Below, one piece after another: positions 10,903 through 50,648 of a stretch of 64,000 nt of DNA. The stretch lies in the IMG/VR virus record IMGVR_UViG_3300028805_000061. The stretch is one strand, 5' to 3'. Source of the DNA: a virus. Taxonomy: Duplodnaviria > Caudoviricetes. Below the pieces are notes generated by a model. It saw nothing but the letters and a program-made list of their open reading frames with translations, searched no databases and was not told the DNA's origin. The translations under genes and the position numbers were made by a program. Position 1 is the stretch's first letter; every line of letters begins with the position of its first letter.

Positions 10903-10933
10903 AGAAAATATATCAAAAAATATATTAATAAAT

Positions 10934-15491: not shown

Positions 15492-15569
15492 CAATGGATA
15501 ATGAAGAATTTGAAATTAGTTTTTTATTAAAAAGATTGCAAAAAGAGAATAAAGAATTAAGGGAGAAAC

Positions 15570-15890: not shown

Positions 15891-15891
15891 G

Positions 15892-16134
15892 ATGAAAATA
15901 ACTTTTGAATTTGATGATAATGAACCTAGATTTTATGAAAATCATGAATCAACAAAACTTTATGCAATGGAAAATGCTGAAATATTAGGATTTTCATTAC
16001 AACAAATATTTAATAAAATAAAATATTGGGAAAAGAATGAAGATAAATATAATGTTTCTACAGATGAAGTAAGAGATGCTTTAGTAGAAATACTAGATAA
16101 TAATGGTATAAATTTAGAAAGGTTAGGATATTAG
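15892..16134 (+). CDS. hypothetical protein
   Basis: ORF with AAGGA RBS. Confidence 0.6.
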   Translation: MKITFEFDDNEPRFYENHESTKLYAMENAEILGFSLQQIFNKIKYWEKNEDKYNVSTDEVRDALVEILDNNGINLERLGY

Positions 16135-16629
16135 ATGAGTAATGAGAATATTAAAAGTTTAATTAAAGAGATTATTGAGAAAAGAAAAGAAGCTTTTAGT
16201 ACACAAATTATAGCAGATGAACTTACTACTAGAAATATTACAGCTTATAAAAATACTATAACTAAAATACTAAAGGAATTAGGTTATTCTTTTGATAAAA
16301 GCAGTAAAACTTGGAAATGTAAAAAAGAAAAATCTTTAGAATTACCAGAAACAATAAAAGTGTTTACTCCACATATAATTACTTATATTTTTAATGGAAC
16401 TAAATTAGAAAAAATGGATCATCACTTCCTGGGAGTATTCTATAAAAAAGAAGATGCAGAAGCACATTTGAGATTACAAATAGATTTTTATGCAAAAATA
16501 GCTAAAACTATAACTGATAATAATCCTGAAGCTAAATTCAACATTAGTGTCCACTTATATGAAATGGATGCACATAAATCAGATAAAGGATTTATATTTG
16601 CTACAGAATTTATGGGAGAAAATAAATAA
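16135..16629 (+). CDS. winged-helix-like protein, paralog 3 (different C-terminus)
   Basis: FSTQIIADEL...TITKILKELGYSFDKSSKTW matches the N-domain of 13703 and 14687. Confidence 0.6.
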   Translation: MSNENIKSLIKEIIEKRKEAFSTQIIADELTTRNITAYKNTITKILKELGYSFDKSSKTWKCKKEKSLELPETIKVFTPHIITYIFNGTKLEKMDHHFLGVFYKKEDAEAHLRLQIDFYAKIAKTITDNNPEAKFNISVHLYEMDAHKSDKGFIFATEFMGENK

Positions 16630-17132
16630 TGAATAATGAAGAATCACTAGATAAAATGCTTGAAGAATTTTCACAAGAAGAATTAAATTCTAAATCTGAT
16701 AAAGAGAAAATAGCTGATTTAATTGTAGAAAATCAAATGCTAGAACATAAGATGATGGTTTTAGCAGCATTAGCTATAGGGGCTTCTAAAGTACTTGATT
16801 ATTATGCAAGTTCTAGTCTAGCTAAACCCACATTTACTATGGTGGATTATTCAAAAGAAGACCAACCCTTATATAGTAAAGCTAAATATAAAGTAACAGA
16901 AGTATTAGATACAAAAGGTCCAGATAAAGAATTTTTAGTAGGAATGAATATGTATGATCTAAATATAGATACTGAAACTGCACAAAAAACTTCACAACAA
17001 ATTTTAGAAAAAATTAAAGAATTAGGTATTATTATAGAAGAAAAATATGAAGAACCTACAGAAGAATCTTTCGAATCAAAAGATAAACAGTTACACTTAG
17101 ACTTTAATGAAGGTGAAATAGATGAGAACTAA
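16629..17132 (+). CDS. hypothetical protein
   Basis: TAATG coupling. Confidence 0.6.
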   Translation: MNNEESLDKMLEEFSQEELNSKSDKEKIADLIVENQMLEHKMMVLAALAIGASKVLDYYASSSLAKPTFTMVDYSKEDQPLYSKAKYKVTEVLDTKGPDKEFLVGMNMYDLNIDTETAQKTSQQILEKIKELGIIIEEKYEEPTEESFESKDKQLHLDFNEGEIDEN

Positions 17133-17421
17133 ATGGGGTAAAAATTATAATAAACCAACAAAAAGCTTTATTAAAAATCAAGCTATGAATAAATTTAAAG
17201 AGCGTTTAAAGCAAATTCTTATTGCTACATTGGATGTACCTTGTGGGTATATAGATGTTTCTACACATTCAAAAGCTGAAGAAGAATTATTATATAAAGA
17301 AAAAGTTGAACCAGTAAGAAAACAAGTTTTAAATGATTATGGTGAGATAACTAAAGATTTACCAAGAAAAGAGAAAAAGAGACTAAGAAAGACCCATCAG
17401 GAGATTATAGAGATATGGTAA
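17122..17421 (+). CDS. hypothetical protein
   Basis: ORF track. Confidence 0.55.
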   Translation: MRTKWGKNYNKPTKSFIKNQAMNKFKERLKQILIATLDVPCGYIDVSTHSKAEEELLYKEKVEPVRKQVLNDYGEITKDLPRKEKKRLRKTHQEIIEIW

Positions 17422-17732
17422 AAGACAATTGTCATGATTGTAAACATAGAGAATTAGGTATTAATTATACAAATTGTAAAAGAAAATGCTCTTATAAATA
17501 TAAAATGCAAAGATATAGATCTAATAAAGATATAGAAGAGGTAGTTTGTAATCTATATAAAGATGTAAATAATTATTTAAGAGATTGGGTTAAAGAGAAT
17601 TTTCAGACTAGTGAACAAATAAAAGAGAATCAAGAATTATGTGAAACTTTATTTGATTTTGGGGAATTTGTTCTTAGAAAAATAATTCCTTATTCACCTA
17701 AAATGGATTTTATGAATCATGAATTAATGTAA
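17415..17732 (+). CDS. Cys-rich hypothetical protein
   Basis: CHDCKH...CKRKC. Confidence 0.55.
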   Translation: MVKDNCHDCKHRELGINYTNCKRKCSYKYKMQRYRSNKDIEEVVCNLYKDVNNYLRDWVKENFQTSEQIKENQELCETLFDFGEFVLRKIIPYSPKMDFMNHELM

Positions 17733-17747
17733 GAAAGGAGATTAAAC

Positions 17748-18116
17748 ATGAGAAAAGTTGAAATTGGAACAAGTAATTATACTGAAGTATTTGCTATAGG
17801 TGCTAAAATGTATAATGCTAATCATTATTATGAAGTAAGACAAACACCCAGTGAAGGAGCAACTATTTCTGATAAAGGGATTTATGCTAAAATCAAATTT
17901 CAAGAAGGCCCTATTAAAGAACGTGGTATAAATGGTTGTCACAATGAAGATTTAATTGCAATAGTAATAGATAGACTTCAAAGTTTTCAAGAAAGTTCTT
18001 ATGAATGTAAAGAAAATGCCATGGCAATAACAAAACTTGAAGAAGCTTTACTTTGGTTAAGAAAAAGAACTGATGATAGAATCAAAAGAAATGTAGAAGG
18101 AACAAGTCAGTTATGA
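17748..18116 (+). CDS. tad1: Tad1-family anti-defence signal-sponge protein (Thoeris/CBASS inhibitor)
   Basis: ANHYY...IKFQEGP....GINGCHNEDLIAIVIDRLQSFQ...CKENAMAITKLEEALLWLRKRTDDRIKRNVEGT matches the Tad1 consensus as I recall it; AAGGAG RBS. Confidence 0.8.
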   Translation: MRKVEIGTSNYTEVFAIGAKMYNANHYYEVRQTPSEGATISDKGIYAKIKFQEGPIKERGINGCHNEDLIAIVIDRLQSFQESSYECKENAMAITKLEEALLWLRKRTDDRIKRNVEGTSQL

Positions 18117-18296
18117 TGCCACAAGGATGTGTAGATATAGGAAATATAATCTGTCCTAGAAAAGATAAATGTTTAAGAAGGGAATCAGCAATTTGTGCAC
18201 CTTCTGGAGTAACACTTTTAGTTAATATGTATGACTATAAAAATGACTGTTGTGAGTACTATATTGAAAATGAAAATATAGAGAAAGGTAATTAGA

Positions 18297-19022
18297 ATGT
18301 TTAATATAAAAAAGGAGGACCATTTAATGGAAGTAATACATAAGAAAACTCAAAATAGATACTATATTGATGATGTTGTAATTGATTCAACCAATGAATT
18401 AGAACCAGAAAAACAAGTAAAAATTCTTTATAGTAATGATAAAGCCGAAAGATTTGTTAGAGAAGCTCATGAGTTTATCGAAAAATTCTATATACCACAT
18501 GGATTTAATATTTTAAGTAAAGCTTGTGAATTAGCAATGCAAGATGTAGAAGAATTTCATAATAGAGTTGAATCAGTAAATAATATACAACATAATAAAA
18601 TAGAAGAAGGTAAACTTACTTGGGAAGATGTTAAAGAATGTGACTGGAGCAATTCTTCTTGTAATGAATGTCAATGCGAAAAAGAGTATATAGGTGAAAT
18701 GATAGATGTAGATGTTTATAATACTTATAAACAAACAGTAGAAAATAGGTGGTATGCTCCACTATCAATAATTAAACTTTGTGCTTATACTCAATTGAAA
18801 GAATTGTTTACTATAAGATGTTCTGATTTTGATTTAGTTAAGAAAGATTATGATAATGCAACTAGTGAATATTTCTTATTAGGTTACAGGTATTTAAGTG
18901 ATTTTCGCAAAAATCCTTGTCAAGTATGTAAAATACCTTTTAAAGTATTTAATAAGATTCTAGATGCAATAAATACTAGAGTAGAAAAAGGAGAAGATGA
19001 TGACCAATTCTTTGATGACTAA
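18297..19022 (+). CDS. DUF1653-like N-terminal domain protein
   Basis: HKKTQNRY....IDSTNE.....ILYS....FVREAHEFIEKF. Confidence 0.55.
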   Translation: MFNIKKEDHLMEVIHKKTQNRYYIDDVVIDSTNELEPEKQVKILYSNDKAERFVREAHEFIEKFYIPHGFNILSKACELAMQDVEEFHNRVESVNNIQHNKIEEGKLTWEDVKECDWSNSSCNECQCEKEYIGEMIDVDVYNTYKQTVENRWYAPLSIIKLCAYTQLKELFTIRCSDFDLVKKDYDNATSEYFLLGYRYLSDFRKNPCQVCKIPFKVFNKILDAINTRVEKGEDDDQFFDD

Positions 19023-19311
19023 TAGCGAAGATGTTCAATCAGAAATTTTTAAACAATTAGAAGAAATTCTAACTCCTTATTACAAAGAATTAATAAACGA
19101 GTCTAATTGGAGGGTATTATCATATAGTATAATAAATAAATTTGATTTTTGGCAATGGGAAAATTCTATATTAAATTATAAAATAATATGTAATAATAAT
19201 TGTTCAGATCTTATTTTAGAATATGACATACCCTTTTCTGAAGGATGGTTTCTTTATTGTCATTTAAGAAAAGGTCATTTAATGTTAAAATTTGTACCAA
19301 AAGAATTCTAA
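18997..19311 (+). CDS. hypothetical protein
   Basis: ORF with AAGGAG RBS. Confidence 0.55.
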   Translation: MMTNSLMTNSEDVQSEIFKQLEEILTPYYKELINESNWRVLSYSIINKFDFWQWENSILNYKIICNNNCSDLILEYDIPFSEGWFLYCHLRKGHLMLKFVPKEF

Positions 19312-19399
19312 TACTTTTGTTTAGCTCTAGAACAATTAAAAGTACTTGTTTTATTTAATTATTCAATTAATAATATAAGTACTTTTTAATGAGGTAAAT

Positions 19400-19654
19400 A
19401 TGATTGTTCAAGATTATTATGTAGATGGTACAGATTTTGAAATAATTAATTGTCCAGCTTATGATAAAAATATTACAGAAGGGGCTTGTAGAGCACGATA
19501 TTGTGAGATTACTTGTAGAAAAAATAAAGATTGTATAATCAAATCTCACATGGTAGCTTTATCAGCATTAGTAAATGTAGCTAAAAGAACACCAATAAGT
19601 GCTGAATATATTGGTGCAATGGCTTGTTTTAATAGTTTTATTATTCAGAGATAA
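19400..19654 (+). CDS. Cys-rich hypothetical protein
   Basis: GAGG RBS; NCPAY...C....C...C.....C. Confidence 0.6.
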   Translation: MIVQDYYVDGTDFEIINCPAYDKNITEGACRARYCEITCRKNKDCIIKSHMVALSALVNVAKRTPISAEYIGAMACFNSFIIQR

Positions 19655-19725
19655 TAATAATTTTACGAGATTTCTTTTCTACAATATTAAATTATACTGT
19701 ATAACTTAAAATAAGGAGAAATATT

Positions 19726-19872
19726 ATGGCAGTATTTGAATACGACACTCTAGATTTACCTGGAACAGCAGCTCTTGATCCAGAAAAAACGCTTAAAGAT
19801 ATTGGAGTTACTTTAACTAAAGATGATATAGTTGAAGCTGGTGGTGTAGTAGAAGATAATCAAGAAGGTTAA
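19726..19872 (+). CDS. 48-aa protein paralogous to the N-terminus of the next gene (putative virion anchor/decoration module; not in ORF track)
   Basis: AAGGAG RBS; MAVFEYDTLDLPGTAALDPEKTLKDIGVTLTKDDIVEAGGVVEDNQEG*. Confidence 0.8.
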   Translation: MAVFEYDTLDLPGTAALDPEKTLKDIGVTLTKDDIVEAGGVVEDNQEG

Positions 19873-19970
19873 GAGATATGATACTAGGATATAATACATT
19901 GAATCTGCCTAATATCGATGCTCTTGATCCAGAAAAAACGCTTAAAGATATCGGAGTTACTTTAACTAAA
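19771..19970 (+). repeat. 51-bp direct repeat (19771-19821 and 19920-19970)
   Basis: gctcttgatccagaaaaaacgcttaaagatat(t/c)ggagttactttaactaaa, 1 mismatch. Confidence 0.9.
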
Positions 19971-21023
19971 CAGGATCTGATAGATGCTGGAGGTAAAGTA
20001 AAACCCGATGAACCAGAACCACCCTATGTGGAAGTAGAATCTTTAGAAGATTTAAGTAATTTAATTTCTGGAGAAGAAGCAAAAATATATGCAGAAATAA
20101 AACAAGAATTAGCACTTGCTGCTAATGATAGAATAGTTATTCCAGCTGGTAAAGAAGTAAATCTAAAGATAGATAATAAAATCTCTTGTACTAAAACTGG
20201 TTTCTATGTTGAAGATGGCGGTACTTTGAACTTATCTGGAGAAGGTACTATACAAACTTCAAATAAAAGTACTTCTGGAGCAATGATAGAAGTTAAAGGG
20301 GCAAATGCTATTGTAAATATAGAAGATGTTACACTTGATGCTATTACAGTAAATGGTAAATCTACAAATAATCAAGCTTATGGGATTTATGCAATGGATG
20401 ATGCTTCAATTAATTTTAAATCTGGTACTATTAAATGTGCTTATGGATCTTGTATAAGTACAAATAATACTACTGAAGGAGCTACTGTAATTAATGTAGA
20501 AGGTGGGGAATTATTATGTGATGGTTCTTATGCAATTTACCTCCCTTCACAATCTACAGTAAATATTAAAGGCGATGCTAAAGTACAAGGTATTAATGCT
20601 AGAATGGGCAAATTTAATATTAGTGAAAATGCTCAAATACTACCTACAACCATTACAGAAGCTGATTATGATAATATTGGAAGTAATTTCAATACATCAG
20701 GCTGTGTATGGTTAGGTGATACAATAGCAATAATGGCTGGTACATATACTGATGTAGATGGTACTGAATGTATTTTCAATATTAAAGATAATGCAACGGT
20801 TACAAGCAACTTTAGATCAGCAATTGGTATTTATGAAGTAGATACTAAAGAAGCTCAAGTAGTTACATTCAATGTAGCTAATGCAGCAAATGTTACTACT
20901 AGTGATCAAGGATTTGAAAATATTACAGTTTATAATCATGAATATATAGCTGAACAAGCTCAAGCTGCTGGTAAAACCTACAATCCTTCTGTTCAATCTG
21001 ATGTTACTGTCAATGTAGCTTAG
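19878..21023 (+). CDS. putative surface/adhesin protein: N-terminal anchor, Pro linker, beta-helix-like domain
   Basis: KPDEPEPP linker then repeated short beta strands (GTLNLSGEGTI, INFKSGTI, VINVEGGEL, YAIYLP..STVNIKG). Confidence 0.65.
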   Translation: MILGYNTLNLPNIDALDPEKTLKDIGVTLTKQDLIDAGGKVKPDEPEPPYVEVESLEDLSNLISGEEAKIYAEIKQELALAANDRIVIPAGKEVNLKIDNKISCTKTGFYVEDGGTLNLSGEGTIQTSNKSTSGAMIEVKGANAIVNIEDVTLDAITVNGKSTNNQAYGIYAMDDASINFKSGTIKCAYGSCISTNNTTEGATVINVEGGELLCDGSYAIYLPSQSTVNIKGDAKVQGINARMGKFNISENAQILPTTITEADYDNIGSNFNTSGCVWLGDTIAIMAGTYTDVDGTECIFNIKDNATVTSNFRSAIGIYEVDTKEAQVVTFNVANAANVTTSDQGFENITVYNHEYIAEQAQAAGKTYNPSVQSDVTVNVA

Positions 21024-24310: not shown

Positions 24311-24694
24311 ATGGATAATAGAACTTTGATTGAATCTTTAGAATACCATGTTAATATTTTTGAAGAAGAGTCTAAATTGAAAAATGTTGCTGTAGTAGGG
24401 GGTGGAGCAGTTACTGGAGGTTTAGCCGGTAGAGCTATAGGGAGGGGTATAGGTAAACTCCAAGGTGCTAATAAAATAGCTAATACTGTAGCAAAAAATA
24501 GAACTGCTGATATAGCCAAAAAAGCAGTTGGACTAAGTGCTAAAAGTTCTATTAAAGGCCAAATCTTAAAACAGGCTCCTACTATAGGTAAAGGTATACA
24601 AAAACTAGGTAAAGCAGGAGCATTAGGAGGAGCTATAGCTGGAGGAGTTTTAGCAAAGAAAGCTTATGATCACTTTAAGAATAAAAAGAAATAA
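24311..24694 (+). CDS. cationic glycine-zipper protein with acidic leader (putative internal head protein)
   Basis: LIESLEYHVNIFEE leader; GGLAG..IG; C-terminal GGAIAGGVLAKKAYDHFK shared with the 32.7-36.8 kb family. Confidence 0.7.
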   Translation: MDNRTLIESLEYHVNIFEEESKLKNVAVVGGGAVTGGLAGRAIGRGIGKLQGANKIANTVAKNRTADIAKKAVGLSAKSSIKGQILKQAPTIGKGIQKLGKAGALGGAIAGGVLAKKAYDHFKNKKK

Positions 24695-32382: not shown

Positions 32383-32697
32383 ATGAATAATAGACAACTA
32401 ATTGAATCTCTTGAAAAATATACTAAGAAAATTCAGGAAGTTTCTGTGAATAAATGGCAAAGAGGTGCTAAAAATTCTTTACCAGGTAGAGAATTTGTTA
32501 ATCTAAAAAATACAGAACTAACATTAGACCCTGACTATTATTCTGATGAACAGAAGCAAAAGATTTTAAATAAAAGATTTAAAGATGCTCAAAGATATAC
32601 TTATGCCAATAAAATAGCTGGATTAGATTTAAAAGATTTTGACACTAATAAAATACCAGCTAGAACAATGCAAAAAGCTTTAAGGAGTTATAAATAA
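32383..32697 (+). CDS. putative internal head protein
   Basis: MNNRQLIESLE...IQE leader nearly identical to MDNRTLIESLE of 24311. Confidence 0.6.
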   Translation: MNNRQLIESLEKYTKKIQEVSVNKWQRGAKNSLPGREFVNLKNTELTLDPDYYSDEQKQKILNKRFKDAQRYTYANKIAGLDLKDFDTNKIPARTMQKALRSYK

Positions 32698-34094
32698 TGA
32701 GATTTAATGAAGTTGATATAGAAGTTAAACATTCTGGTTTACTTGAAGTACCTGCTGGTAAAGAAGTAGACCAATTACCACAATCACATTTTCAAAAATT
32801 GATTGATAAAAAAGGTTATGAAGCTATTATTAGAGGACTTACTAATTTAGAAGTTTGGAATAAGAATAAAAATCCTAAACTTAGTCAGTGGGCTTCTAAT
32901 ATGGCAGATAAATTAAAAGTAGTTAATAAGAAAGATGAAGCTTATTCTGGTAAGCTTTTTGAAATGAATGCTAAATTAGCTAAAAAACTAGGTATTAAAA
33001 CAGTAACTGGTCTAAAGAAAGCTGGACAATATGCTAAAGATACAGTTGCTAAATCAGCTGATACTGCAAGAAATGCAATTGTAGCTGGTGCTGTAGCTCC
33101 AGTAGGAGCAGCTATAGCTCAAAAATATAGTCATAAGGATAAAAAGAAAGAACCAAGATATACTGCTGCAGAGGTAGCTGCTCTAGCTGCTGCAATGAAA
33201 AACAAAAATGAATCCCTTTCTAATAAATTATTTTCTTATTTGACTATATTAGAAAAAGAACAAAAAGAAGAATCTGGAGTTAAAAAAGTTGCAAAAGGAG
33301 CTGCTAAAGGAGCTGGTATAGGTTTAGCTGGAGGAACAGCTTTAGGAGCTGGGGTAGGACATACAGTAGGAAAGGCTTTGACTGGTGGACTCAAAGGTAA
33401 TTATGCCACTGGATTAGCTGGTGCTGCTACTAAAGGGGTTAGAGCTTTATCAACTGGAGCTGGTGCTGCTGGTGGAGCAGCATTAGGTTTAACAAGAGGT
33501 TTAGTTGGGGGAGCTTTAATAGCTGGAGGAAAACATTTATATGATAAACACAAAGCTAAAAAAGAAATTTCTAAAAAGAATGAATCCTTAATTGAAGCTT
33601 TAAATAGATTAAAAAGTATTTATGAAGAAGAAGGAATCCCTAAAAAGAAAAGAGTTTTAACTCCTGAACAAAAAGCAAGAAGACAAGAAAGAAGGAGATT
33701 GAGAAGACAATTAGAAAAACAAGGTATTTCTACTTCTAAACCTCGTTCTGGTCCAGTTAAAACCATACAAGGAGAACCTAATTTAGCTAAATCTATTGAA
33801 AATGCTAAAAAAGCAAAACAAACTACTAATACAGCAAAAACTGCTGGAGCTGCTTCATCAACAGTAAATAAGACTGCCGAAACTACTAAGAAATTTGTTT
33901 CAGATGGGGTTAAAAAAGCTACAGGAGCTACTAAAAATACAGTTAATAAAACTCTTAGACATTCACAAGCTTTAAAGAAAGTTTTAAACCGAGCTTCTTT
34001 AAGAGGGGGATTAGCTGGTGCTGCTATTACAGCTGGAGTAGGAGCTGCTGGATTAGCTGCTAAGAAAATGTATGATAAAAACAAAAAGAAATAA
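32697..34094 (+). CDS. cationic glycine-zipper polyprotein (putative internal head protein)
   Basis: MRFNE start; two KNESL...(L/Y)E(E) linkers separating K/A/G-rich modules ending in YDK motifs. Confidence 0.7.
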   Translation: MRFNEVDIEVKHSGLLEVPAGKEVDQLPQSHFQKLIDKKGYEAIIRGLTNLEVWNKNKNPKLSQWASNMADKLKVVNKKDEAYSGKLFEMNAKLAKKLGIKTVTGLKKAGQYAKDTVAKSADTARNAIVAGAVAPVGAAIAQKYSHKDKKKEPRYTAAEVAALAAAMKNKNESLSNKLFSYLTILEKEQKEESGVKKVAKGAAKGAGIGLAGGTALGAGVGHTVGKALTGGLKGNYATGLAGAATKGVRALSTGAGAAGGAALGLTRGLVGGALIAGGKHLYDKHKAKKEISKKNESLIEALNRLKSIYEEEGIPKKKRVLTPEQKARRQERRRLRRQLEKQGISTSKPRSGPVKTIQGEPNLAKSIENAKKAKQTTNTAKTAGAASSTVNKTAETTKKFVSDGVKKATGATKNTVNKTLRHSQALKKVLNRASLRGGLAGAAITAGVGAAGLAAKKMYDKNKKK

Positions 34095-34105
34095 GGAGAT
34101 CAAAA

Positions 34106-34759
34106 ATGCAATTTAATGAAATATTTTCTAATACCCCAATAGATGAATCTATCAAGGGTGAAGCTATTAAACAAGGTGCTAAAAAAGCTGCAAGATATGC
34201 TAGAGTAATGAGTAAGAAAGCAATAAATAAAACTAAAAAATATTTAAAACAACCTGCTACTAAAGGACAAGTAATAGGGGCTGCTTTAGTAGGGTCAGCT
34301 GTAAGAGGTAAAGCTGAAAAGATTCATCAAGCTAAATTAGCTAAAAAACAAAAGAATGAATCGTTAACTCCCTTTAAAGAAAAGAAAACAGTAATAGCTA
34401 AAAAATACAAAGGAAAAGATTTTAAGAAAATATTTGGTAAAAATAATATAGCTAAAAAAGCTACTAAAAATGAATCATTAGTAGAAAAACTTGAAAGAGT
34501 TACAAATAATGTTAGAACAACTAATGAAGCTAATTTAGCTGGAATAGGTAAATCAGCAGTAAATGGTTTAAAAACATTTGGTAAAAATATTGGTGATACA
34601 GCTAAAACAGTAGGAGGAGCAATTAAAAAACACCCAGTAAGAACAGCAGCAATTGCAGGTACTGGTTTAGCTGGTTATGGAGCTTATAAAGGAGTTAAGA
34701 AAGCAGTAAATGGAGCTAAGAAAGCTGGTAAAGCTGCTTATCAAGATTGGAAAGTATAA
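34106..34759 (+). CDS. cationic polyprotein (putative internal head protein)
   Basis: MQFNE start; two KNESL linkers; ends GKAAYQDWKV. Confidence 0.7.
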   Translation: MQFNEIFSNTPIDESIKGEAIKQGAKKAARYARVMSKKAINKTKKYLKQPATKGQVIGAALVGSAVRGKAEKIHQAKLAKKQKNESLTPFKEKKTVIAKKYKGKDFKKIFGKNNIAKKATKNESLVEKLERVTNNVRTTNEANLAGIGKSAVNGLKTFGKNIGDTAKTVGGAIKKHPVRTAAIAGTGLAGYGAYKGVKKAVNGAKKAGKAAYQDWKV

Positions 34760-36156
34760 TGATATTAGATGACATTCTAAATAAAATAAGATATAAACAA
34801 TCAGTAGATATTCCTAGACAAGATTTAGTAATGTTGTCTTTAGCATTGTGGAAAGAAGCTAATTTAATTGAAGAAGATAGTACCGAAGCACCTGGTAAAG
34901 CTGCTATAGAATATTTACTAAATCAAAAATATATGATTATAGAAAATCCAAAATTAGTAGATTCTGTAATAGATGTTCTTCTTAAAGAAATAGATGGAGT
35001 AATTAAAAAAGTGGTAGCAAAATATCATGTTAAAAGAAAAGGTAAAAATTTCTATTTTGATGAAGCCCTTGAGTTTGCTATTATTTCTCCAGATAAAATG
35101 AGTGATTGTGAAGATGCTAATCAATTAATAGCTAATCTATATGCTGCACAAGTTGAATTAGAAACTTTAAGAGTACAATTAACTAGGACAAATCTTCAAA
35201 ATACTTCTCAAACTATATTGGCTAAACAAGCAGTATTAGATAAAGAACAAGAAATAAAAGAGATGAAAAAGAGACTAAGACTGTTTAGTTATTTTGATTC
35301 CGTTAGTGATCAAAATAATTTATATAGAAGATCTCTTGGAGAAGCTAAAAAAGAAGTTACTACTGGAGCTATAGCTGGTGGGGTTGTTGGTAGTAAAATT
35401 GGTTCAGACAAATTTAAGAAAAAAGCTAATTTTGTTACTAAACAACAAAAGTTTCAACAAAATGTAAAGAACTTAAATAATTCTAAAAAAGAAATGCAAG
35501 GTTTAGCTTCAGAAATAAAACATATTTACAATACTGGTCTAAGTCCAAATAAACAAAAGAAAGTAAATAAATTAGTAGGCAAAATGAAACAAACTCTTAA
35601 AGACCAAAGACTTCTTAGAAATTCTGTTAAAAAAGGTGGAAAACAAGTAGTTGGTTTATCTAGAGAAGCTGCTAAAAGAGGTTTAAAAACTGGACTTAAA
35701 GGAGCTGCTATTGGAGCTGGTATTGGTTTAGGAACTGCTGCAATTCATAAAGCTCTTAATAAAAATGAATCATTAACAGAAAGACTAAATCAACATTTGA
35801 GTAGATTAGAGGAAAAAACCTCTACTTTAAATACTTTTAAGGATAATAAGGGGATATATCAACTAGACACTTTTAGAAATAGAGCAAAGAATTTTTTACT
35901 CTCTCCTAAAGTAAATAATAGAACTACAATTTCTGCTGCTTTACTTGTAGGAGGAGTTGGTATTAGTTTATTATTGAAAAAGGCTAAAGAAAAAGGAGCA
36001 GGAACTACTATAGGTTCTATTAAAAGAGCTGTAAGTAGAGTTCAAAAATCTAGTAAATATACTAATACACAAAAAGCTAAAATAAAAAATTCTGGAGATT
36101 TAGCAATAAGAAGAATAAATCAAGTATTTAAGAATAAAAAGGAGATTAACAAATGA
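34759..36156 (+). CDS. polyprotein with helical N-domain and glycine-zipper modules
   Basis: TAATG coupling; GAIAGGVVG, GAAIGAGIGLG, KNESLTERLNQHLSRLEE linker. Confidence 0.7.
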   Translation: MILDDILNKIRYKQSVDIPRQDLVMLSLALWKEANLIEEDSTEAPGKAAIEYLLNQKYMIIENPKLVDSVIDVLLKEIDGVIKKVVAKYHVKRKGKNFYFDEALEFAIISPDKMSDCEDANQLIANLYAAQVELETLRVQLTRTNLQNTSQTILAKQAVLDKEQEIKEMKKRLRLFSYFDSVSDQNNLYRRSLGEAKKEVTTGAIAGGVVGSKIGSDKFKKKANFVTKQQKFQQNVKNLNNSKKEMQGLASEIKHIYNTGLSPNKQKKVNKLVGKMKQTLKDQRLLRNSVKKGGKQVVGLSREAAKRGLKTGLKGAAIGAGIGLGTAAIHKALNKNESLTERLNQHLSRLEEKTSTLNTFKDNKGIYQLDTFRNRAKNFLLSPKVNNRTTISAALLVGGVGISLLLKKAKEKGAGTTIGSIKRAVSRVQKSSKYTNTQKAKIKNSGDLAIRRINQVFKNKKEINK

Positions 36157-36770
36157 AAAATGAATCAGTAGGTCTTAGACTTTTGAATAAGTTAGATATG
36201 CTTTCTCAAGGTCAACATATTTTTGAAGAAGTAGATGCACCAGAAAATGATGGGACAGCTGAAGATGCTGCAGAAGCTACAGAAGAAACTTCTGAAACCC
36301 TTAAAAGATTAAGAGGTCATTTATATAGATTCCAAGAAGCTGAAGGTGATAAAAAAGCTGTTGGAGCTGGTGCTTTAACTGGAGCTGTTGCTGGGACTGC
36401 TTTAGCTAGAAGATCAGCAGAAAAAGCTTATGGATTAAAAAATGCTGCTAAAGGTTTTGCTAAAAAAGGAGCAGAAGCTTCAAAAAATGCTGAATATTTT
36501 GCTAATAAAGCAATAGCAAAAGATGCAATGGCAAAAGCTAATAAAGTTGTTGGAAATAAAGCTACTGCTAAAGGTTTTGCCAAATCAGCAGCAGCTTCAG
36601 CAGGAGCAGCAGAAAAAGCAGCTAAGGGGGCTAAAGGGTTTGGTAAAGCAGCAAAAGAAGTAATGAAACCTATTACCTCCAAAGGTTTCAAAGGTGGACT
36701 TAAGGGGGCAGCAATTGGGGCTGGAGCTGCTTATTTAGGTAAAAAAGCTTATGACTACTTTAAAAATTAA
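36153..36770 (+). CDS. cationic glycine-zipper protein with acidic propeptide
   Basis: MKNESV...IFEE...FQE then A/K/G-rich module ending GAAIGAGAAYLGKKAYDYFKN. Confidence 0.7.
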   Translation: MKNESVGLRLLNKLDMLSQGQHIFEEVDAPENDGTAEDAAEATEETSETLKRLRGHLYRFQEAEGDKKAVGAGALTGAVAGTALARRSAEKAYGLKNAAKGFAKKGAEASKNAEYFANKAIAKDAMAKANKVVGNKATAKGFAKSAAASAGAAEKAAKGAKGFGKAAKEVMKPITSKGFKGGLKGAAIGAGAAYLGKKAYDYFKN

Positions 36771-36806
36771 TAACTAAAAAAATTCTAACTGGTGATGGCA
36801 ATACAG

Positions 36807-36847
36807 AAGAGAGAATAGATTATTTTCTATTCTCTCTTTATTTTTTT
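36807..36847 (+). terminator. intrinsic terminator
   Basis: aagagagaataga...tctattctctctt plus T tract. Confidence 0.7.
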
Positions 36848-37146
36848 GAATTTGAAAGTATTAAAAATCTTCTAATAATTTATGTTTTTATTAAATTAAG
36901 GAGATTATATAAAATGGAAATTGCAAATGATCCATCAAACAGAATTATTTTGGAAGAGGGAAAAGATAGAAGAAGAAAATTATTAAATCTTTTTTATAAA
37001 TATGTTAGAGAAGATGTAGTAATAGTACCCAAATTTGAATATGATAGACTTCTTAAAGAAAATCATACTTTAGAAGTTCAAAATAAATTATTGAATGAAA
37101 TGAGACAAGCTGAGATAGATAGAAGAGATATACATAGGCCAGTGTA

Positions 37147-43072: not shown

Positions 43073-45121
43073 ATGTTCTATACAAATAATCCTATAACAA
43101 ATTTTTTAAACTCATTTTATGATAGAGCTGATATAGGTGTTCAACAATTAGACCCACAATCTCAATTTGCATCAGTTAAATCAGGAGTTAGAGAATTTGA
43201 TCAGTATTATAAACAATCTGTATTTGCGCAAATATTAGAAAGAATTGCTGGAACAATTGACTCAAGGGGAAACTTATTTAGCCGTTTAAGAAATTTTAAA
43301 GATGACCCATTAGCAATTACTATGATTGATATTTTTATAGAAGATGGTTTTTCACAAACACAAAATAAAGATTTTTATGAAGTAACTTACTCCCCCATAA
43401 ATAATTCTGCTGAAGAAGATGATCTTGAGCCAGAAGATGAAGAAACAGAAATTATTGAAGATGAAAAAATAAAAGAAATACAAGATGTAATAAATGCTTG
43501 TGAAAAGAAATTTCTTTTAAAATCAAAATTTAAAAATATTTTATTTGATCTATTTCTTTTAGGTGAATGGATGTGGGAAACAAAGTATGAAAAAAATGGA
43601 GATCCAAAAACAGGTGGTTTACAGTCTATAAAAGATAATAAGCTAGTTGATAATATTATAGGTATATATGAAGATGAAGTAGTATCTTCCTATATTGAAA
43701 TTTGTCAATCTAGTATGGGTGAACCTAATGGAGGAATTAGAGAAATTGATAAAGATAATATACTTCATCTGGTGCTAAATCCTGGTACAATTCGTTTTTA
43801 TATAAATGAGAACTATGGTCTTTCTGGTTATAATTACAATACTGGTTTTAATAGGAGTTCAAGTTATGTAGCTGGTTGGAATAGTAATACTTCTGGTTTT
43901 AATAGTTCAAATACAATAGATGACCCAGCTAATAATTATAGAACTCCCTTAGATCAACCTACTAAAGGTTCTAAAATGCTTTCTAAATATATTAGAACTG
44001 GTAGATCAGTATTATATAGTTCACTTAAAACACTTGAGAAGTTGGCTTTATTAGATATGACTAATTTAGCTTTACTCTTAAAAAGAGCTTTAAGTCCAAC
44101 TATAATGAATGTTCAAGTACCAGAAAGTTATTCATACAAGAAAGCATTAGAAGCTGCTACAGCTTATGAACAATGGTTTTATGATTCTACAGAAGAAACA
44201 AGAAATACTTTTTCACAAACTGGAGTTGATAATATCAACTTTAATAGAATATTAGAATTATCTCAAAAATTCAAATGTATGCCAGTATGGGGAGATTCCA
44301 AAGGTGCATTACAAACTCTTGACTTAGCTGATACAAGAGATAATAGAGATGCTATTAATGATATTAAAGATGAACTTTCACTTACTTCAGGAATCCCTTA
44401 TTATTATTTTAACCCTCAAGCAGGAGGGATGGAAAAGAAAGAGATGTTAAAAACTTATGCAAAATATGCAAGGAAATTACATATTTTGCAACAGTCTATA
44501 GCTAATTCAGTAATAGAACTTCATTATAAAAATTTGAAATATAAAGGTTATAAAGTTAACAGAGAAGATATAGCAGTTAAATTTAAAGCTATTGTTAATG
44601 CTGATTCACTTGAATCTATTGAAGAAATAATTAATTTGTTTACAGCATTGACAGAAATAGTTGGTTCATTAGATGCATTTGCTTCTTCACAAGCATTACA
44701 TGTAAGAGTAGTAACAAAAGCATTTATGAAATACTTTAGATTTATTACTCAATCATATCCATTTATACAAGATATGCTAGAAGAAGCTCCAGAACAAACT
44801 CTAACTGATAACCCTGATTTATTAGTTGGTAATATGGGACCAGGTATGATGGGTTATGCTGATCCTAATATGAATCCAGAAGATGTAGTTGCAATGCAAC
44901 AACCACAAATAGATCCACAAACTGGACAACCTTTACAGCTTTCAGCAACACCACAACAAGCTGAGTATGCTGAAGCTTATGAATTATTTGGTACAACAGA
45001 TTTGAATGAAGGTATGTCAAGGTTTAAATATAAATTAGCAAAGAAAATGTCCAAAAAAGTAGAAAGTTTAGATGAAGCCATAACTAATAAACCATATAGA
45101 TATAGTCAGACTTCTTTCTAG
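43073..45121 (+). CDS. portal protein (T4 gp20-like)
   Basis: RTGRSVLYSSLKTLEKLALLD...R.L.P.I.NV.VP, ELSLTSGIPYYYF, KYARKLHILQ; size and context. Confidence 0.75.
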   Translation: MFYTNNPITNFLNSFYDRADIGVQQLDPQSQFASVKSGVREFDQYYKQSVFAQILERIAGTIDSRGNLFSRLRNFKDDPLAITMIDIFIEDGFSQTQNKDFYEVTYSPINNSAEEDDLEPEDEETEIIEDEKIKEIQDVINACEKKFLLKSKFKNILFDLFLLGEWMWETKYEKNGDPKTGGLQSIKDNKLVDNIIGIYEDEVVSSYIEICQSSMGEPNGGIREIDKDNILHLVLNPGTIRFYINENYGLSGYNYNTGFNRSSSYVAGWNSNTSGFNSSNTIDDPANNYRTPLDQPTKGSKMLSKYIRTGRSVLYSSLKTLEKLALLDMTNLALLLKRALSPTIMNVQVPESYSYKKALEAATAYEQWFYDSTEETRNTFSQTGVDNINFNRILELSQKFKCMPVWGDSKGALQTLDLADTRDNRDAINDIKDELSLTSGIPYYYFNPQAGGMEKKEMLKTYAKYARKLHILQQSIANSVIELHYKNLKYKGYKVNREDIAVKFKAIVNADSLESIEEIINLFTALTEIVGSLDAFASSQALHVRVVTKAFMKYFRFITQSYPFIQDMLEEAPEQTLTDNPDLLVGNMGPGMMGYADPNMNPEDVVAMQQPQIDPQTGQPLQLSATPQQAEYAEAYELFGTTDLNEGMSRFKYKLAKKMSKKVESLDEAITNKPYRYSQTSF

Positions 45122-45158: not shown

Positions 45159-46292
45159 GTGAACCCTTTAAGAATATTCAATCAAGTTATATCTGATTTC
45201 AAAACTAGAATTAGAAAAAAGTTTGCTAAAACTTTAGGGATTAAAGATATAGGAGCTTATAAAAAAGAAATTCAAGAAATGTTAGATGATCTTGAATCAG
45301 TAGCTCAACCAGAAGTAATAGAAGAGTTAGTAGAACAATATGGTATACAAGGGGCTGCACAACATTATATAGAACTAAATAAATATTATAGAGAGTATTA
45401 TTTCTTTATAATTAAAGAAGTGAAAAAAGCTGAAAATACAACTAATGAATTTAAGAATTTTGCTAGAAGAGCTGAGGCTGAGTGGGAAAGTACTTATAAA
45501 GAGATTATTCAATATTTGTATGATAAAAAACAAAGAATGCTTTATGGTGATACTAATGAAGATGTAAAAACATATAAAGCAAATTCTTTTGCTGATCAAC
45601 CATTACCCTGGCTTAGAAAAGAAGAATTAAATGAAGAAGATATATTTAATTCAGACTATATTCCAGAAGGATTATTTGGTGCTTCAGTTGGTGTTGCTGG
45701 AGGAGCAGCAGTTGCGGTAGCTATATCCTCTTTATCGGCAGCATTTCATATTCATCCTAAAGTATTTACTGGTATTTCTACTGCAGTAGGAGCTTTGATA
45801 GGGCATTTTATTCAAAAACACTATTTTATAGATTTTACTAATTATGTAAAATTAAAAAGATATATAACACATTACCCAGAATCATTTGAAGTTATTTGTG
45901 ATTTAATGGCAAAGAATGCAGTTAAGTTTCAACAAAAAGACCCAGTAAAATATAAAAAGATTTTAATGAATTTAAAGAGACTTCAACAAAATCCTCCAGA
46001 AATATATAAGAATTATTTGGATGATGAAATAGAAGCTGAAGAATCTAATTTAGATAGTGGTCTATTTGATGTAAAGGATAGAGAAGGTAATTTAATTAAG
46101 TCAGGTACAAGTCAAATAGTAAATAATAATTATTATAATAGAGATTCTAGAATATCTAGAAGAGACAGATTCTCCTCTAGAAGAGCTCTTTCCAGAAGAA
46201 GAGATTACGATATGGATGACTTAACTAATAATAAGAGTATATCACATGATCAATTAGCTATACAAACAAAAGATTTGTTAGGAGATTTATAA
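45159..46292 (+). CDS. hypothetical protein with internal glycine-zipper hairpin
   Basis: LNEE then GASVGVAGGAAV...TAVGALIG. Confidence 0.65.
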   Translation: MNPLRIFNQVISDFKTRIRKKFAKTLGIKDIGAYKKEIQEMLDDLESVAQPEVIEELVEQYGIQGAAQHYIELNKYYREYYFFIIKEVKKAENTTNEFKNFARRAEAEWESTYKEIIQYLYDKKQRMLYGDTNEDVKTYKANSFADQPLPWLRKEELNEEDIFNSDYIPEGLFGASVGVAGGAAVAVAISSLSAAFHIHPKVFTGISTAVGALIGHFIQKHYFIDFTNYVKLKRYITHYPESFEVICDLMAKNAVKFQQKDPVKYKKILMNLKRLQQNPPEIYKNYLDDEIEAEESNLDSGLFDVKDREGNLIKSGTSQIVNNNYYNRDSRISRRDRFSSRRALSRRRDYDMDDLTNNKSISHDQLAIQTKDLLGDL

Positions 46293-47486: not shown

Positions 47487-48989
47487 ATGGGACTAATTTC
47501 ATTAAATGAAGTATGGGACTTCAATAGTTCTGATATAGCAGCTATTGGATCAGATACTCCTTATAAATTAACTGAAGATTATCTAGTAGAAGGAGCTACT
47601 GCTCCAGAAGTAGATGGTAAAATAATACTAGGAAAAGTAATGGGCCCTAGCTTTTTTGGAGATGGAGTTTCACGTAATCAGAGATTTTACCCTAGATCTC
47701 TTTGGGAAAGACAATTATCTTTACCAAGAATTAAAGAAAGATTAGCTAATCGTACAATGTTAGGTACAATTGGGCATGATGATGGTCCAGTAACCGAACA
47801 AGATATCTCTTCTGGTAGAGTATCTCATATTATTACTAATCTTTATTTAAAAGAGAATAATCAAGGTATTTCTGAATTACTTATATTGAATACTCCAGCC
47901 GGTAGAAATCTTTATACTTTGATGAAAGCTGGTAGTCGGTTAAAGATTTCCACTAGAGCGCAAGGGCAATTTCTAGAAGGAGAAACTCATAATGGGCTTC
48001 CTATAGTAGATCCAAAAACTTTTGTGTTAGAAGGTCTAGATATTGTTATTGAACCAGGATTTATAGAAACTGACCCAAGACTTCAAGAGTCCTTGAACAG
48101 AGTTACTCAGAGAGTTACTTCTATTTTAGAATCTAGAAGAAATATTACCAGCAACGTTAATAATACAAAATCAATAAAAGAAAACAAAGGAGAAAACATT
48201 ATGGAAATTACAGAACAACTATTACAAGAAGTTAGATCAGCTTCTAATGTTTACAAAACAATGTATGAAGAACAAAAGAAATTAAGAGAAGAAGCTGAAG
48301 ATGACAAAAAAGAAGCTGAAAAAGAATGTGAAGAATGCAAAAAAGAATTAGAAGAATGCAAAAAACAATTATCAGCTTATAGAATGCTTGGAGAAGCTGC
48401 TGACTTATCACAAACTATTCAAGAATATGCAGAATTAGGTTTCTCTTCTCCCACAGAAGCAGCATTTATTCTTAATTCTTTAAAAGAAGAAGCAGAAGAT
48501 GCTATAGATAAAGAAGAAGTAGAAGACATTAAAAAAGATGTAAAAGAAGCTGCTGAACTTTTGGCTCAATATGAATCTTTAGGTACAGTAGATGAACTTA
48601 AAGCTATTAAAGAAAAAGCAGAAGAATTAGTTGATGAACTTGATAAAAAAGAAGAAGATGAAGTTACTGAAAGACTTTGCAGAAAATATCAACTTCCCGA
48701 ATCTATTGTTCGTAAATTCGTTGAAACTTCAGAAGATGAAGAAGAAGCTGAAAAAGAAATTGAAGAAGCTTTAGAAGGTATGCCTGATCCAGAAGTAGAT
48801 GATAAATCTGGTACTGATTTAGATGACTTCGAAAACGATCACGAACTTCCTAACAAAGTAAATAATAATGATGTAGAAGCAGTTCCTGATGTAGTTGAAG
48901 AGTCTTTGAAAAAATTAGCTAGTAAACCTAAATCAGCAATCTTAGAAGGCTATAAACCTGGTTCATTAGTTAAATCTATGTTTGATTAA
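47487..48989 (+). CDS. prohead protease (T4 gp21-like) fused to acidic scaffold region
   Basis: SRNQRFYPR, LGTIGH, VSHII, ILNTPAGR, ISTRAQG, LDIVIEPG; C-terminal half is Glu-rich coiled coil. Confidence 0.9.
   Translation: MGLISLNEVWDFNSSDIAAIGSDTPYKLTEDYLVEGATAPEVDGKIILGKVMGPSFFGDGVSRNQRFYPRSLWERQLSLPRIKERLANRTMLGTIGHDDGPVTEQDISSGRVSHIITNLYLKENNQGISELLILNTPAGRNLYTLMKAGSRLKISTRAQGQFLEGETHNGLPIVDPKTFVLEGLDIVIEPGFIETDPRLQESLNRVTQRVTSILESRRNITSNVNNTKSIKENKGENIMEITEQLLQEVRSASNVYKTMYEEQKKLREEAEDDKKEAEKECEECKKELEECKKQLSAYRMLGEAADLSQTIQEYAELGFSSPTEAAFILNSLKEEAEDAIDKEEVEDIKKDVKEAAELLAQYESLGTVDELKAIKEKAEELVDELDKKEEDEVTERLCRKYQLPESIVRKFVETSEDEEEAEKEIEEALEGMPDPEVDDKSGTDLDDFENDHELPNKVNNNDVEAVPDVVEESLKKLASKPKSAILEGYKPGSLVKSMFD
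48201..48989 (+). CDS. nested scaffolding protein (in-frame internal start)
   Basis: AAAGGAGAAAACATT-ATG in frame at codon 239, at the start of the acidic coiled coil. Confidence 0.6.
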   Translation: MEITEQLLQEVRSASNVYKTMYEEQKKLREEAEDDKKEAEKECEECKKELEECKKQLSAYRMLGEAADLSQTIQEYAELGFSSPTEAAFILNSLKEEAEDAIDKEEVEDIKKDVKEAAELLAQYESLGTVDELKAIKEKAEELVDELDKKEEDEVTERLCRKYQLPESIVRKFVETSEDEEEAEKEIEEALEGMPDPEVDDKSGTDLDDFENDHELPNKVNNNDVEAVPDVVEESLKKLASKPKSAILEGYKPGSLVKSMFD

Positions 48990-49098: not shown

Positions 49099-49737
49099 AT
49101 GTCAATATTTTTCAAAAATACTAGTAAAACTAAATCAATTAGTTTAAGATATGGTGATGGTAATAATAATATGATTCAATTAAAACCTGGCCAACAACAA
49201 CCCATACCTTCAATATTTAATAAACAAAAACTACAATCTTATTTACGTTTATTTAAAGATTTGAAAATAGTAGAAGAACTTGAAGAAATAAAAGAAGAAA
49301 ATAATGATATAACAGGAGAAGTAAATGGAGATTCTATTAAAGATAATTCAGAAAGTCAATTATCTACACCAGACGATACCTCAGGAGAACAGCAAGATAA
49401 TCTTAATTCACAAGATGATAATCAACAGACAGAAAATCAAGAGGGAAACAATGATCCAGTAGTAAATGGACCTGTTGAAGGGGAACAGCCAGAAAATCAA
49501 GAAGGGGACAATGATCCAGTAATAAATGGGTCTGTTGAAGGAGAACAGACAGAAAATAGAAATACTGAAGATCAAGAAAAAGATAAACTTCCTATATATA
49601 CTGAAAAAGAATTAAATAAATTATCTGCTGGAGAAATAAAAGAGATTGCTAAAAAATTAGGTATTGAAGTTACAGAAGATTCTACTAAAAAAGCATTAAT
49701 ACCTGTTATATTAAATAAACAAGGAAAATTAGAATAA
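49099..49737 (+). CDS. acidic low-complexity protein with C-terminal Rho-N/HeH domain
   Basis: YTEKELNKLSAGEIKEIAKKLGI....TKKALI. Confidence 0.7.
   Translation: MSIFFKNTSKTKSISLRYGDGNNNMIQLKPGQQQPIPSIFNKQKLQSYLRLFKDLKIVEELEEIKEENNDITGEVNGDSIKDNSESQLSTPDDTSGEQQDNLNSQDDNQQTENQEGNNDPVVNGPVEGEQPENQEGDNDPVINGSVEGEQTENRNTEDQEKDKLPIYTEKELNKLSAGEIKEIAKKLGIEVTEDSTKKALIPVILNKQGKLE
49425..49557 (+). repeat. 60-bp in-frame tandem repeat (about 2.2 copies)
   Basis: QTENQEGNNDPVVNGPVEGE / QPENQEGDNDPVINGSVEGE / QTEN. Confidence 0.85.
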
Positions 49738-50648
49738 TGAATAATATGACAAAATATTCTAAAGAGATTATAGAAGAATTGTATATTAATCAAAATAAAA
49801 CTAGAAAAGAGATTTGTGAAATTTTAAAAATTTCTTGTAAAAAGTTTTGTAAGATGATAAAAGATTATGATATATATAAATCTAAAGATAAAATAATTTC
49901 TAGAATAAAACAGTCTAACATAAATACTTATGCTACTGGGAAACCTCAAGAAAAAATAAAACAAACTTTTATAAAAAATTGGGGAGTTGAAAACCCCAAT
50001 AAATTACTTACAATTCAGAATAAGAAAATTAATACTTCTTTAGAAAGATATGGAGAATCCCATCCCAATAAATCTAAAGAAGTAAAAATTAAAATTTCTC
50101 AAAGTAATAAAAAAGTATATGCTACTGGAAAACCTCAAATAAAACAACAAGAAACTTTTCAAAAAAAATATGGATATAATACCCCTCTATTAATTCCTAA
50201 AATTAGAGATAAGATTAGAGAAGGTTTTGATTCAGGTATTACACAACTGAAAGACTATAAAACCAAAAAGAAAAATAAATCTTTTAATAAATCAAAACCA
50301 GAAGAAGAAGCTTATCAATTACTCTTAACAAAATTTCCAGTAGAAGATATTGAGAGACAATATAGATCTGAATTATACCCATTTAATTGTGATTTTTATA
50401 TCAAATCCTTAGATCTATTTATAGAATGTAATTTTCATTGGACACATGGGAAATACCCCTATACGAATATTAAAGACCCTTTATTAGAAAAATGGGAAAC
50501 AAGAAAAGATAAAAAATTCTATCAAAAAGCAATTGAAGTATATACTAGATTCGATCCTTTAAAAAGAAAAATGGCTCAACAAAATAATCTTAATTGGATT
50601 GAATTCTTTACTTTAGCTGATATTTACAATTATATAAAGGAGTTATAA
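49737..50648 (+). mobile_element. free-standing homing endonuclease (PD-(D/E)XK / Vsr-DUF559-like)
   Basis: N-terminal HTH, repeated K.KQT....(W/Y)G...P units, SKPEEE...RQY...YPFNCDFYI..LDLFIECNFHWTHG. Confidence 0.7.

Follow-up and report, generated by a model that had tools for sequence, protein, structure and literature searches.

The 64,000-nucleotide window analysed here (bases 43849-107848 of the 144,741-bp IMG/VR phage record IMGVR_UViG_3300028805_000061, which CheckV rates as complete) contains an operon of five genes, called g0 to g4, and a single-module paralogue, called 24311 after its position. Their products are basic and carry repeated copies of a short motif, K-N-E-S in its commonest form. 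This raises the question of whether they are, as an earlier note on this DNA had proposed, polyproteins that the prohead protease of the phage cuts into pieces inside the head. From the motif, its conservation and its position, we conclude that g0-g4 and 24311 are probably precursors of head-internal proteins processed by the prohead protease. The genes and the joint cassettes within them are as follows (window positions; an arrow marks a presumed cut).

32383..32697, + strand: g0, first gene of the operon, 104 aa, basic, net charge +9
32697..34094, + strand: g1, 465 aa, net +54, starting M-R-F-N-E
33204..33254, + strand: joint cassette g1-1, K-N-E↓S-L ... I-L-E
33576..33629, + strand: joint cassette g1-2, K-N-E↓S-L ... 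I-Y-E-E
34106..34759, + strand: g2, 217 aa, net +36, starting M-Q-F-N-E, joints E85↓S86 and E123↓S124
34352..34381, + strand: joint cassette g2-1, a lineage-specific insertion
34466..34501, + strand: joint cassette g2-2
34759..36156, + strand: g3, 465 aa from ATG 34759, net about +41
35761..35814, + strand: joint cassette g3, K-N-E↓S-L ... R-L-E-E
36153..36770, + strand: g4, 205 aa, net +13, starting M-K-N-E↓S
36806..36849, + strand: intrinsic terminator closing g0-g4, 14-bp stem and T run
24311..24694, + strand: single-module paralogue 24311, 127 aa

The gene positions and the strand given in the earlier note were confirmed, except for the start of g3, which had been placed at TTG 34747 (the longest frame). 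Because of its homologues, the start is most likely ATG 34759. The leader of g0 reads M-N-N-R-Q-L-I-E↓S-L-E...I-Q-E and thus contains the related I-E-S-L-E that had been seen there; that of 24311 reads M-D-N-R-T-L-I-E↓S-L-E...I-F-E-E and is followed by a Gly-zipper body and the tail K-K-A-Y-D-H-F-K-N-K-K-K. In g1, a highly conserved N-domain (residues 6-75) precedes the joints E172↓S173 and E296↓S297 and two Gly-zipper modules ending K-x-x-Y-D-K-x-K, and a conserved Arg-rich helix (residues 322-343, window 33660-33725) is a candidate nucleic-acid-binding element. g3 consists, in order, of a conserved helical N-domain of about 200 residues, a module homologous to the body of g4, a K-N-E↓S-L joint and a C-module. 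After its initial M-K-N-E↓S, g4 continues with an acidic spacer and then a second leader-like helix; its Ala/Gly/Lys body ends in K-K-A-Y-D-Y-F-K. A paralogue of g0 with a similar leader (107 aa, basic, net +19) was found outside the window, at genome 3003-3326.

Both the motif and the composition of these genes are far beyond chance. A six-frame count recovered the six K-N-E-S copies that had been claimed for g1-g4 and only one other in the whole window, at 57623, which is out of frame with the local open reading frame. Among the 226 open reading frames called in the whole genome, N-E-S-[LVIM] occurs six times, always within g1-g4, while 1.25 occurrences of N-E-S-L are expected from composition. 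Lys makes up 14-20% and Ala+Gly 14-35% of g1-g4, the net charge is +13 to +54, and these four genes are the top outliers of the 226 for charge density and for Ala+Gly. The G-x-x-x-G zippers noticed earlier were also verified, at 2.2 per 100 residues, compared with 0.9 expected from the genes' own Gly content (about 2.5-fold) and 0.38 in the proteome. Other parts of the first description held with restrictions. The first 75 or so residues of g1 and the first 200 or so of g3 are conserved but of ordinary composition, and are not Lys/Ala/Gly modules; the scarcity of acidic residues does not extend to the spacer of g4; clear amphipathicity (beyond the 80th percentile of 14-mers in the proteome) is seen in six of the nine linker helices only; and the ending K-x-x-Y-D-x-x-K, said to be frequent, is present as K-K-x-Y-D-x-x-K on four or five of about ten modules and missing from the others.

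Homologues of g0-g4 were found only in metagenome assemblies, and numbered ten for g3 (94-45% identity), about twenty for g1 and six for g4; 24311 had four. K-x-E-S-L is retained in homologues down to 45-50% identity, with N, S, Q, D or P at the second position. At the joint of the g3 family (11 sequences, down to 45% identity) K and E are invariant, S and L nearly so, and the residue between K and E is N, S, Q or D. In the g1-family alignment, E172 and S173 of joint 1 are invariant and L185 and the cassette-closing E186 are conserved; joint 2, present in all members except the most distant, has K294 and E310 invariant, E296 and L298 nearly so, and Ser, Gln or Ala at position 297. Because the Ser codons at the six joints vary (TCC, TCC, TCG, TCA, TCA, TCA) while K-x-E-S-L is kept, selection acts on the protein. 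A DNA-level signal at the joints was rejected because of this variation in the Ser codons and because the reading frame does not include the embedded ATG. An N-glycosylation sequon at N-E-S was rejected too, as homologues have S, Q, D or P in place of the Asn but retain E, S and L.

The leaders of g0, 24311, g4, g1 and g2 are also conserved in homologues, with Glu at P1 (the residue before the presumed cut). In the 24311 family, the only fixed parts are the leader (M1, N3, L6, I7, E8, S9, L10, E18) and the C-terminal tail, the body drifting to 32-36% identity. An exhaustive HMMER scan showed that five of the six g4 homologues are proteins of 296-375 residues, in which residue 1 of g4 aligns to an internal joint with E4 and S5 invariant; upstream of this joint lies a module with membrane-like helices, which itself starts M-x-x-N-E. 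The start of the g4 gene being an internal joint in its relatives, the joint and the N-terminal leader are, as judged from these alignments, the same element. The putative cassette comprises, in both settings, a hydrophobic residue or Lys, any residue, Glu↓Ser-Leu, some 10-20 mostly helical residues and a closing Ile/Leu-x-Glu. Comparison of profiles (hhalign) indicated that the modules, too, are paralogues: the middle of g3 matched the body of g4 (95%, 124 columns), the tail of g1 that of 24311 (89%), and the leader region of 24311 the second leader-like helix of g4 (97%).

The genome scan and the metagenome scan gave one locus each. A 4.1-kb JGI (Joint Genome Institute) contig (L006) keeps the order g1-g2-g3 and lacks g0, and its g2 homologue has a single joint, equivalent to the second one of the window g2. 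The g1 N-domain recurs in a phage contig from a Clostridia metagenome-assembled genome (MAG), behind a different leader and before a nucleotidyltransferase-like domain. No relative of g0-g4 was found in Pfam, PHROG or the PDB. Pfam and PHROG searches with g0-g4 and 24311 gave sub-threshold matches only (Glycine zipper 2TM, ribosomal S21, ProQ-C-like, holin), and PDB profile searches with three families gave none; the S21 and ProQ-C-like likenesses, both weak, concern the Arg-rich helix of g1. There was likewise no homologue of g1 by tblastn in 50,697 phage records, no relative in an IMG/VR scan with the g3 alignment and no usable match in the ESM Atlas.

If the joints are cut, the same signal could be expected in the head proteins that T4-like phages are known to process. 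The relevant genes of the window are the following.

43073..45121, + strand: portal protein, with K-V-E↓S-L-D 18 residues before its C-terminus
47487..48989, + strand: prohead protease of the S77/gp21-like type with a scaffold-like tail, 500 residues
60079..61545, + strand: major capsid protein, with a candidate maturation site N-M-N-E74↓G directly before the conserved core

The protease domain (residues 9-201, approximately) matched phrog_207 with an E value of 3e-21 and Pfam S77 (PF03420) with one of 6e-5 (23 bits, under the 27-bit cutoff). tblastn linked it to annotated prohead core scaffold/protease genes, and a PDB search found no direct sequence match. His97, Ser113, His114 and Ser155 are invariant in five protease-scaffold proteins, and the tail (residues 202-500) is acidic and scaffold-like (net -37). 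The nearest cultured phages, with 28-38% identity by capsid protein and 28-31% by protease in alignments, are Rhizobium RHph_TM21B/TM30, Ralstonia RP13, E. coli IME392 and EP_H11, and Acinetobacter Ab1-TPeters; the protease-scaffold fusion adjoins the capsid gene in all of them. Candidate self-cut sites of the window protease are S-L-N-E8↓V, L-Q-E201↓S-L-N and V-E-E↓S-L-K. The second one lies where the protease domain ends and the scaffold tail begins, and its residues P197, E201, S202 and N204 (L-x-E-S-L-N) are invariant between the window phage and four cultured relatives (28-31% identity). A cut at E201↓S202 would free the enzyme from the scaffold tail.

The earlier note had pointed to S-L-N-E in the protease and N-M-N-E in the capsid protein, and both are present (residues 5-8 and 71-74). 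N-M-N-E74↓G stands opposite V-N-E↓N, V-N-E↓S, E-E↓D and E↓S in relatives, a few residues before the conserved mature core, and the PHROG capsid model starts at residue 66 of the window protein. In three relatives x-N-E-S-L-S occurs inside the capsid propeptide. In Ab1-TPeters, nine N-E-S-L motifs stand against an expectation of 1.07. The scaffold tail holds three of them and the capsid propeptide one; three more close an N-terminal leader shared by adjacent small proteins with bodies that look dissimilar. IME392 has N-E-S-L in the scaffold tail and capsid propeptide and V-N-E-S-M at the capsid maturation point. In RP13 the capsid propeptide contains N-E-S-L, and so does the beginning of a 61-residue gene located between those for portal and protease.

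In T4, gp21 cuts after L/I-x-E and removes propeptides of 7-65 residues, among them the capsid targeting sequence of 10 residues; L-I-E is found at residue 9 of gp21 itself (PMC9026906). The gp245 protease of SPN3US cuts after A-x-E with a preference for Ser at P1' (the residue after the cut), and one measured peptide starts S-L after Glu (PMC10052503). Both enzymes process their own ends (PMC9026906, PMC10052503). The window leaders fit the T4 pattern, with L-I-E8↓S in g0 and 24311 and L-N-E8↓V in the protease. Four independent observations thus support E↓S-L as a likely site of cutting by the protease: the protease boundary, the capsid site, the enrichment of N-E-S-L in relatives and the known S77 sites.

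Two loci in cultured relatives may be mentioned here. The RP13 gene just referred to (LC554890.1 ORF75; L008 894-1079) begins M-V-A-I-N-E-S-L-N. In Ab1-TPeters (PP763253.1, 20814-25606; L017-L018), six adjacent small genes share the leader M-(S/T)-T-R-I-(G/S)-x-(I/L)-L, which mostly runs into (I/V)-N-E↓S, once into V-T-E↓S and once ends differently, dissimilar bodies following. This looks like an uncharacterised array of leader-tagged internal proteins in a cultured phage.

The same data bear on another explanation, in which the proteins are accessories of the head core or scaffold that are left uncut at the joints, the cassette being a repeated helix that binds the scaffold or the capsid interior, and the chains remaining whole or being trimmed at the N-terminus only. 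The cassettes are indeed helical, with six of nine amphipathic, the leaders of T4 act through affinity for the core (PMC9026906), and conservation by itself cannot tell a binding motif from a cut site. We nevertheless hold this explanation to be unlikely, since E-S-L, invariant where protease and scaffold domains meet, also sits at the point of capsid maturation, where T4-type heads are known to be cleaved, since the residues at P1 (Glu) and P1' (Ser) agree with the S77 sites that have been measured, and since a gene start corresponds to an internal joint in relatives.

We then listed the products that processing would yield, assuming that the protease cuts behind every Glu followed by Ser-Leu/Val and, in g1 and g2, also behind the conserved N-terminal N-E. 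The predicted fragments have 167, 124 and 169 residues for g1, 80, 38 and 94 for g2, 337 and 128 for g3, and 201 for g4; with one each from g0 and 24311 (96 and 119), this adds to the nine from g1-g4 a further two, all with isoelectric points of 9.7-10.9 and net charges of +9 to +29. If the closing Ile/Leu-x-Glu is also cut, three cassettes would be released as 14-residue peptides. The proposal of polyproteins cut by the prohead protease is supported by motif conservation, the equivalence of start and joint, the protease boundary, the capsid site and the enrichment in relatives; the products would be basic proteins of 38-337 residues and not short peptides. Most modules end in a Gly-zipper helix with a Kyte-Doolittle (KD) value of 1.0-1.7, or 2.15 in the C-module of g3, which holds the most hydrophobic helix of the set; K-K-x-Y-D-x-x-K then follows in the modules that have this ending. 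AlphaFold2 models had predicted local distance difference test (pLDDT) scores of 38 for g1, where the Arg-rich helix was the sole confident part (pLDDT >70), and of 61 for g3, which was all-helical. A BFVD fold search with the g3 model returned generic long-helix matches only (E > 0.001).

In the mechanism that we favour, the leader and joint cassettes would bring the precursors into the assembling prohead core, and attraction of the very basic modules to the acidic scaffold tail of the protease protein may aid their entry. The gp21-like serine protease would then cut after the Glu residues and separate the modules. The acidic scaffold fragments would exit the head, while the basic products would remain with the packaged DNA and offset part of its charge; at infection they would probably be released from the head along with it. 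A more detailed version can be put forward only tentatively, and we think it rather unlikely as it stands. The released modules would form a "protamine plus pilot" class, the Lys/Ala- and Arg-rich parts of which condense or neutralise head DNA; at infection of a Gram-positive, Clostridia-type cell they would be ejected first, and their glycine-zipper helices with K-K-x-Y-D-x-x-K tails would enter the cytoplasmic membrane and open or stabilise a DNA entry path. Chaining in a polyprotein would set the stoichiometry.

The fate of the fragments could be different if the proteins were core components that are cut and then expelled, with a role purely in assembly or in head-size control. T4 core proteins are cut by gp21 into several pieces, most of which leave the head (PMC9026906), and the acidic scaffold tail of the window phage (net -37) could pair with basic partners during assembly. 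However, the scaffold fragments known to be expelled are acidic, whereas the T4 internal proteins that are retained are described as basic (PMC9026906), and basic fragments as long as 337 residues would be large for the pores of the shell and would bind DNA as it enters. We regard expulsion as improbable, more so than chains left uncut at their joints.

Least probable of the three, in our view, is that the proteins are not part of the virion and act on membranes or on the host, as lysis regulators, exclusion proteins or bacteriocin-like peptides, the motif being an inherited feature of a repeat family. The Gly-zipper segments are moderately hydrophobic (KD 1.0-2.15), 24311 adjoins a gene with a C-terminal membrane helix, and there is a weak match to Pfam Glycine zipper 2TM (PF05433; E 0.022, 15.1 bits versus a cutoff of 24.2). 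With the glycine-zipper membrane proteins and Gly-rich bacteriocins the modules share G-x-x-x-G runs in small-residue helices flanked by Lys. This likeness, also remarked on in the earlier note, is compositional only: the proteins have no signal peptide, N-terminal membrane helix, secretion leader or double-glycine leader, no peptidase, transporter or other export or processing gene was seen among the neighbouring genes scanned, hydrophobicity is mostly under that of true membrane helices, and the motif is common to the processing points of protease, scaffold and capsid. Identity with the tail tape measure was rejected, as there is a separate 1219-aa tape-measure-like gene at genome 111798-115457 and where g3 matched tape measures in BFVD, the similarity was that of generic long helices (E > 0.001, TM score <= 0.23).

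Several points weigh against processing inside the head, the reading that we prefer. We infer the cut motif solely from conservation and position. The residue at P3 is Lys at the joints, whereas it is hydrophobic at the presumed protease and leader sites (it is Met at the capsid site and Lys at the portal site). An N-E among the first 11 residues occurs in 19 of the 226 open reading frames, with about 12 expected from a composition estimate; being common in this AT-rich genome, a bare N-terminal N-E has little weight alone, and it was rejected as general evidence. A g4-family profile gave no match in four cultured relatives or in the L005 genome from the Clostridia MAG, and tblastn of g0-g4 with the low-complexity filter off gave none in the four relatives, so that the motif statistics of these phages bear on the protease and not on the g0-g4 proteins. 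The structure predictions are of low confidence (the pLDDT values of 38 and 61 given above) and gave no fold match. Finally, the synteny of the operon with the head module is loose: it lies about 6 kb from the portal gene, with a DNA ligase and uncharacterised genes between them.

The closest parallel is provided by the internal proteins of T4, namely IPI, IPII, IPIII and Alt, which are also basic and have a short N-terminal leader ending hydrophobic-x-Glu. In both cases there is a gp21-type (S77) protease, the capsid protein of the window phage being T4-like and distant, the leaders are conserved while the bodies of the cargo diverge, and the genes need not sit in the head cluster. The window proteins share no sequence homology with them (no significant Pfam or PHROG family, and the blank tblastn search with g1). 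They differ further in that several cargo modules are chained per frame with internal leader-like cassettes, in the cut context x-E↓S-L with Lys at P3, and in the nature of the cargo. The T4 proteins are compact folded inhibitors or enzymes, whereas the window cargo consists of Gly-zipper, Ala/Lys-rich modules that are mostly modelled with low confidence and possibly disordered. gp22, gp67 and gp68 of T4 resemble the window proteins in undergoing several cuts after Glu in one precursor inside the prohead, but they are acidic and their fragments mostly exit, whereas the fragments predicted here are all strongly basic, and the role of acidic scaffold is already taken in the window phage by the tail of the protease protein.

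Multiple cutting is also known from phiKZ (substrates of gp175) and from SPN3US gp53/gp54 (cut by gp245), where an S77-related protease processes paralogous head-internal families at several x-x-Glu sites. It prefers Ser at P1', and one of the products measured begins Ser-Leu. In these phages the cuts dismantle long propeptides and leave one mature part, whereas the joints of the window proteins separate several comparable modules. No homology to the inner-body or E-protein families was found in PHROGs, phage records or BFVD, and the window phage, unlike the phiKZ-like giants, has a 145-kb genome and no sign of an inner body. Polyvalent proteins (Iyer et al. 2017, PMC5512222), finally, are multi-module proteins thought to enter the host with the DNA, and their defining feature is the presence of enzymatic and anti-defence domains. 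The window proteins are multi-module as well, and the related phage contig from the Clostridia MAG tags an ART-PolyVal domain with an N-E-ending leader; no enzymatic or anti-defence domain was detectable in the window proteins by Pfam, PHROG and PDB profile searches.

On that contig (L005; CAMEMA010000002.1, uncultured Clostridia MAG, 9495-20200), a leader of about 20 residues that ends N-E recurs almost unchanged at the start of at least five genes, and two further genes carry this leader at or near the C-terminal end. The cargo bodies are varied; among them are nucleotidyltransferase-like domains and an ART-PolyVal ADP-ribosyltransferase (PF18760, scoring above cutoff). The g1 N-domain is held by yet another gene, with a different leader in front of it.

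As regards the genome as a whole, the phage is a myovirus with T4-like head building. Its tail tube gene is at 55943, the sheath gene at 57839 and the major capsid gene at 60079; the capsid protein is faintly similar to T4-type capsid proteins, and the portal protein shows 23-29% identity over about 245 residues with annotated portals of cultured relatives. The protease and capsid genes, adjacent in those relatives, are not so in the window phage. A homing-endonuclease-like gene (49737-50648; phrog_3339, DUF7487) and tail genes sit between them, and another such gene, recognised by eye only, lies just past the capsid gene (61615-63000). A late-promoter motif common to the operon and the head genes was not recognisable in the AT-rich DNA. 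The GC content of the window is about 27%. Among the g1 homologues, one comes from a contig of 138.6 kb that was binned as Romboutsia sp., and a domain relative is present in the uncultured Clostridia MAG, which suggests a low-GC Gram-positive host.

Zipper segments occur in two other proteins of this phage. The head-module protein of 45159-46292, whose gene lies between those of portal and protease, contains an E-L-N-E motif and, after it, two Gly-zipper membrane-like helices (KD 1.9 and 1.7); it is possibly a further substrate of the protease. The 1219-aa tape-measure-like protein, encoded outside the window and identified by size and composition only, has a long Gly/Ala/Lys zipper stretch resembling the operon modules and a C-terminal region that is peptidase-like by eye only.

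A full-text literature search returned no paper linking glycine zipper, ejection proteins and prohead protease, and the papers that mention the cultured relatives were, as judged by title and abstract, not about head processing. Several capsid and protease relatives are mentioned in papers on hypermodified-thymidine phages, RP13 in the text and Carin-5 in a title. What is new here is the chaining of cargo modules with internal copies of the leader, the x-E↓S-L cut context common to a clade with members in culture, the type of cargo and its conserved C-terminal tail.

If the processing proposed here is correct, the rule known from T4, a leader and a cut after Glu, would extend to a broad and little-studied clade of myoviruses with protease-scaffold fusions, which includes cultured phages of Acinetobacter, E. 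coli, Ralstonia and Rhizobium, and this clade would gain a concrete cut signal, hydrophobic-N-E↓S-L. Internal head cargo could then consist of polyproteins jointed by copies of the targeting leader, a simple way of loading proteins in a fixed ratio, and the leader/joint cassette might serve for packaging foreign proteins, as the capsid targeting sequence of T4 did. A very basic, Gly-zipper-rich cargo family without known relative would also be a candidate for neutralising the charge of DNA in the head and for helping DNA entry, a long-standing question.

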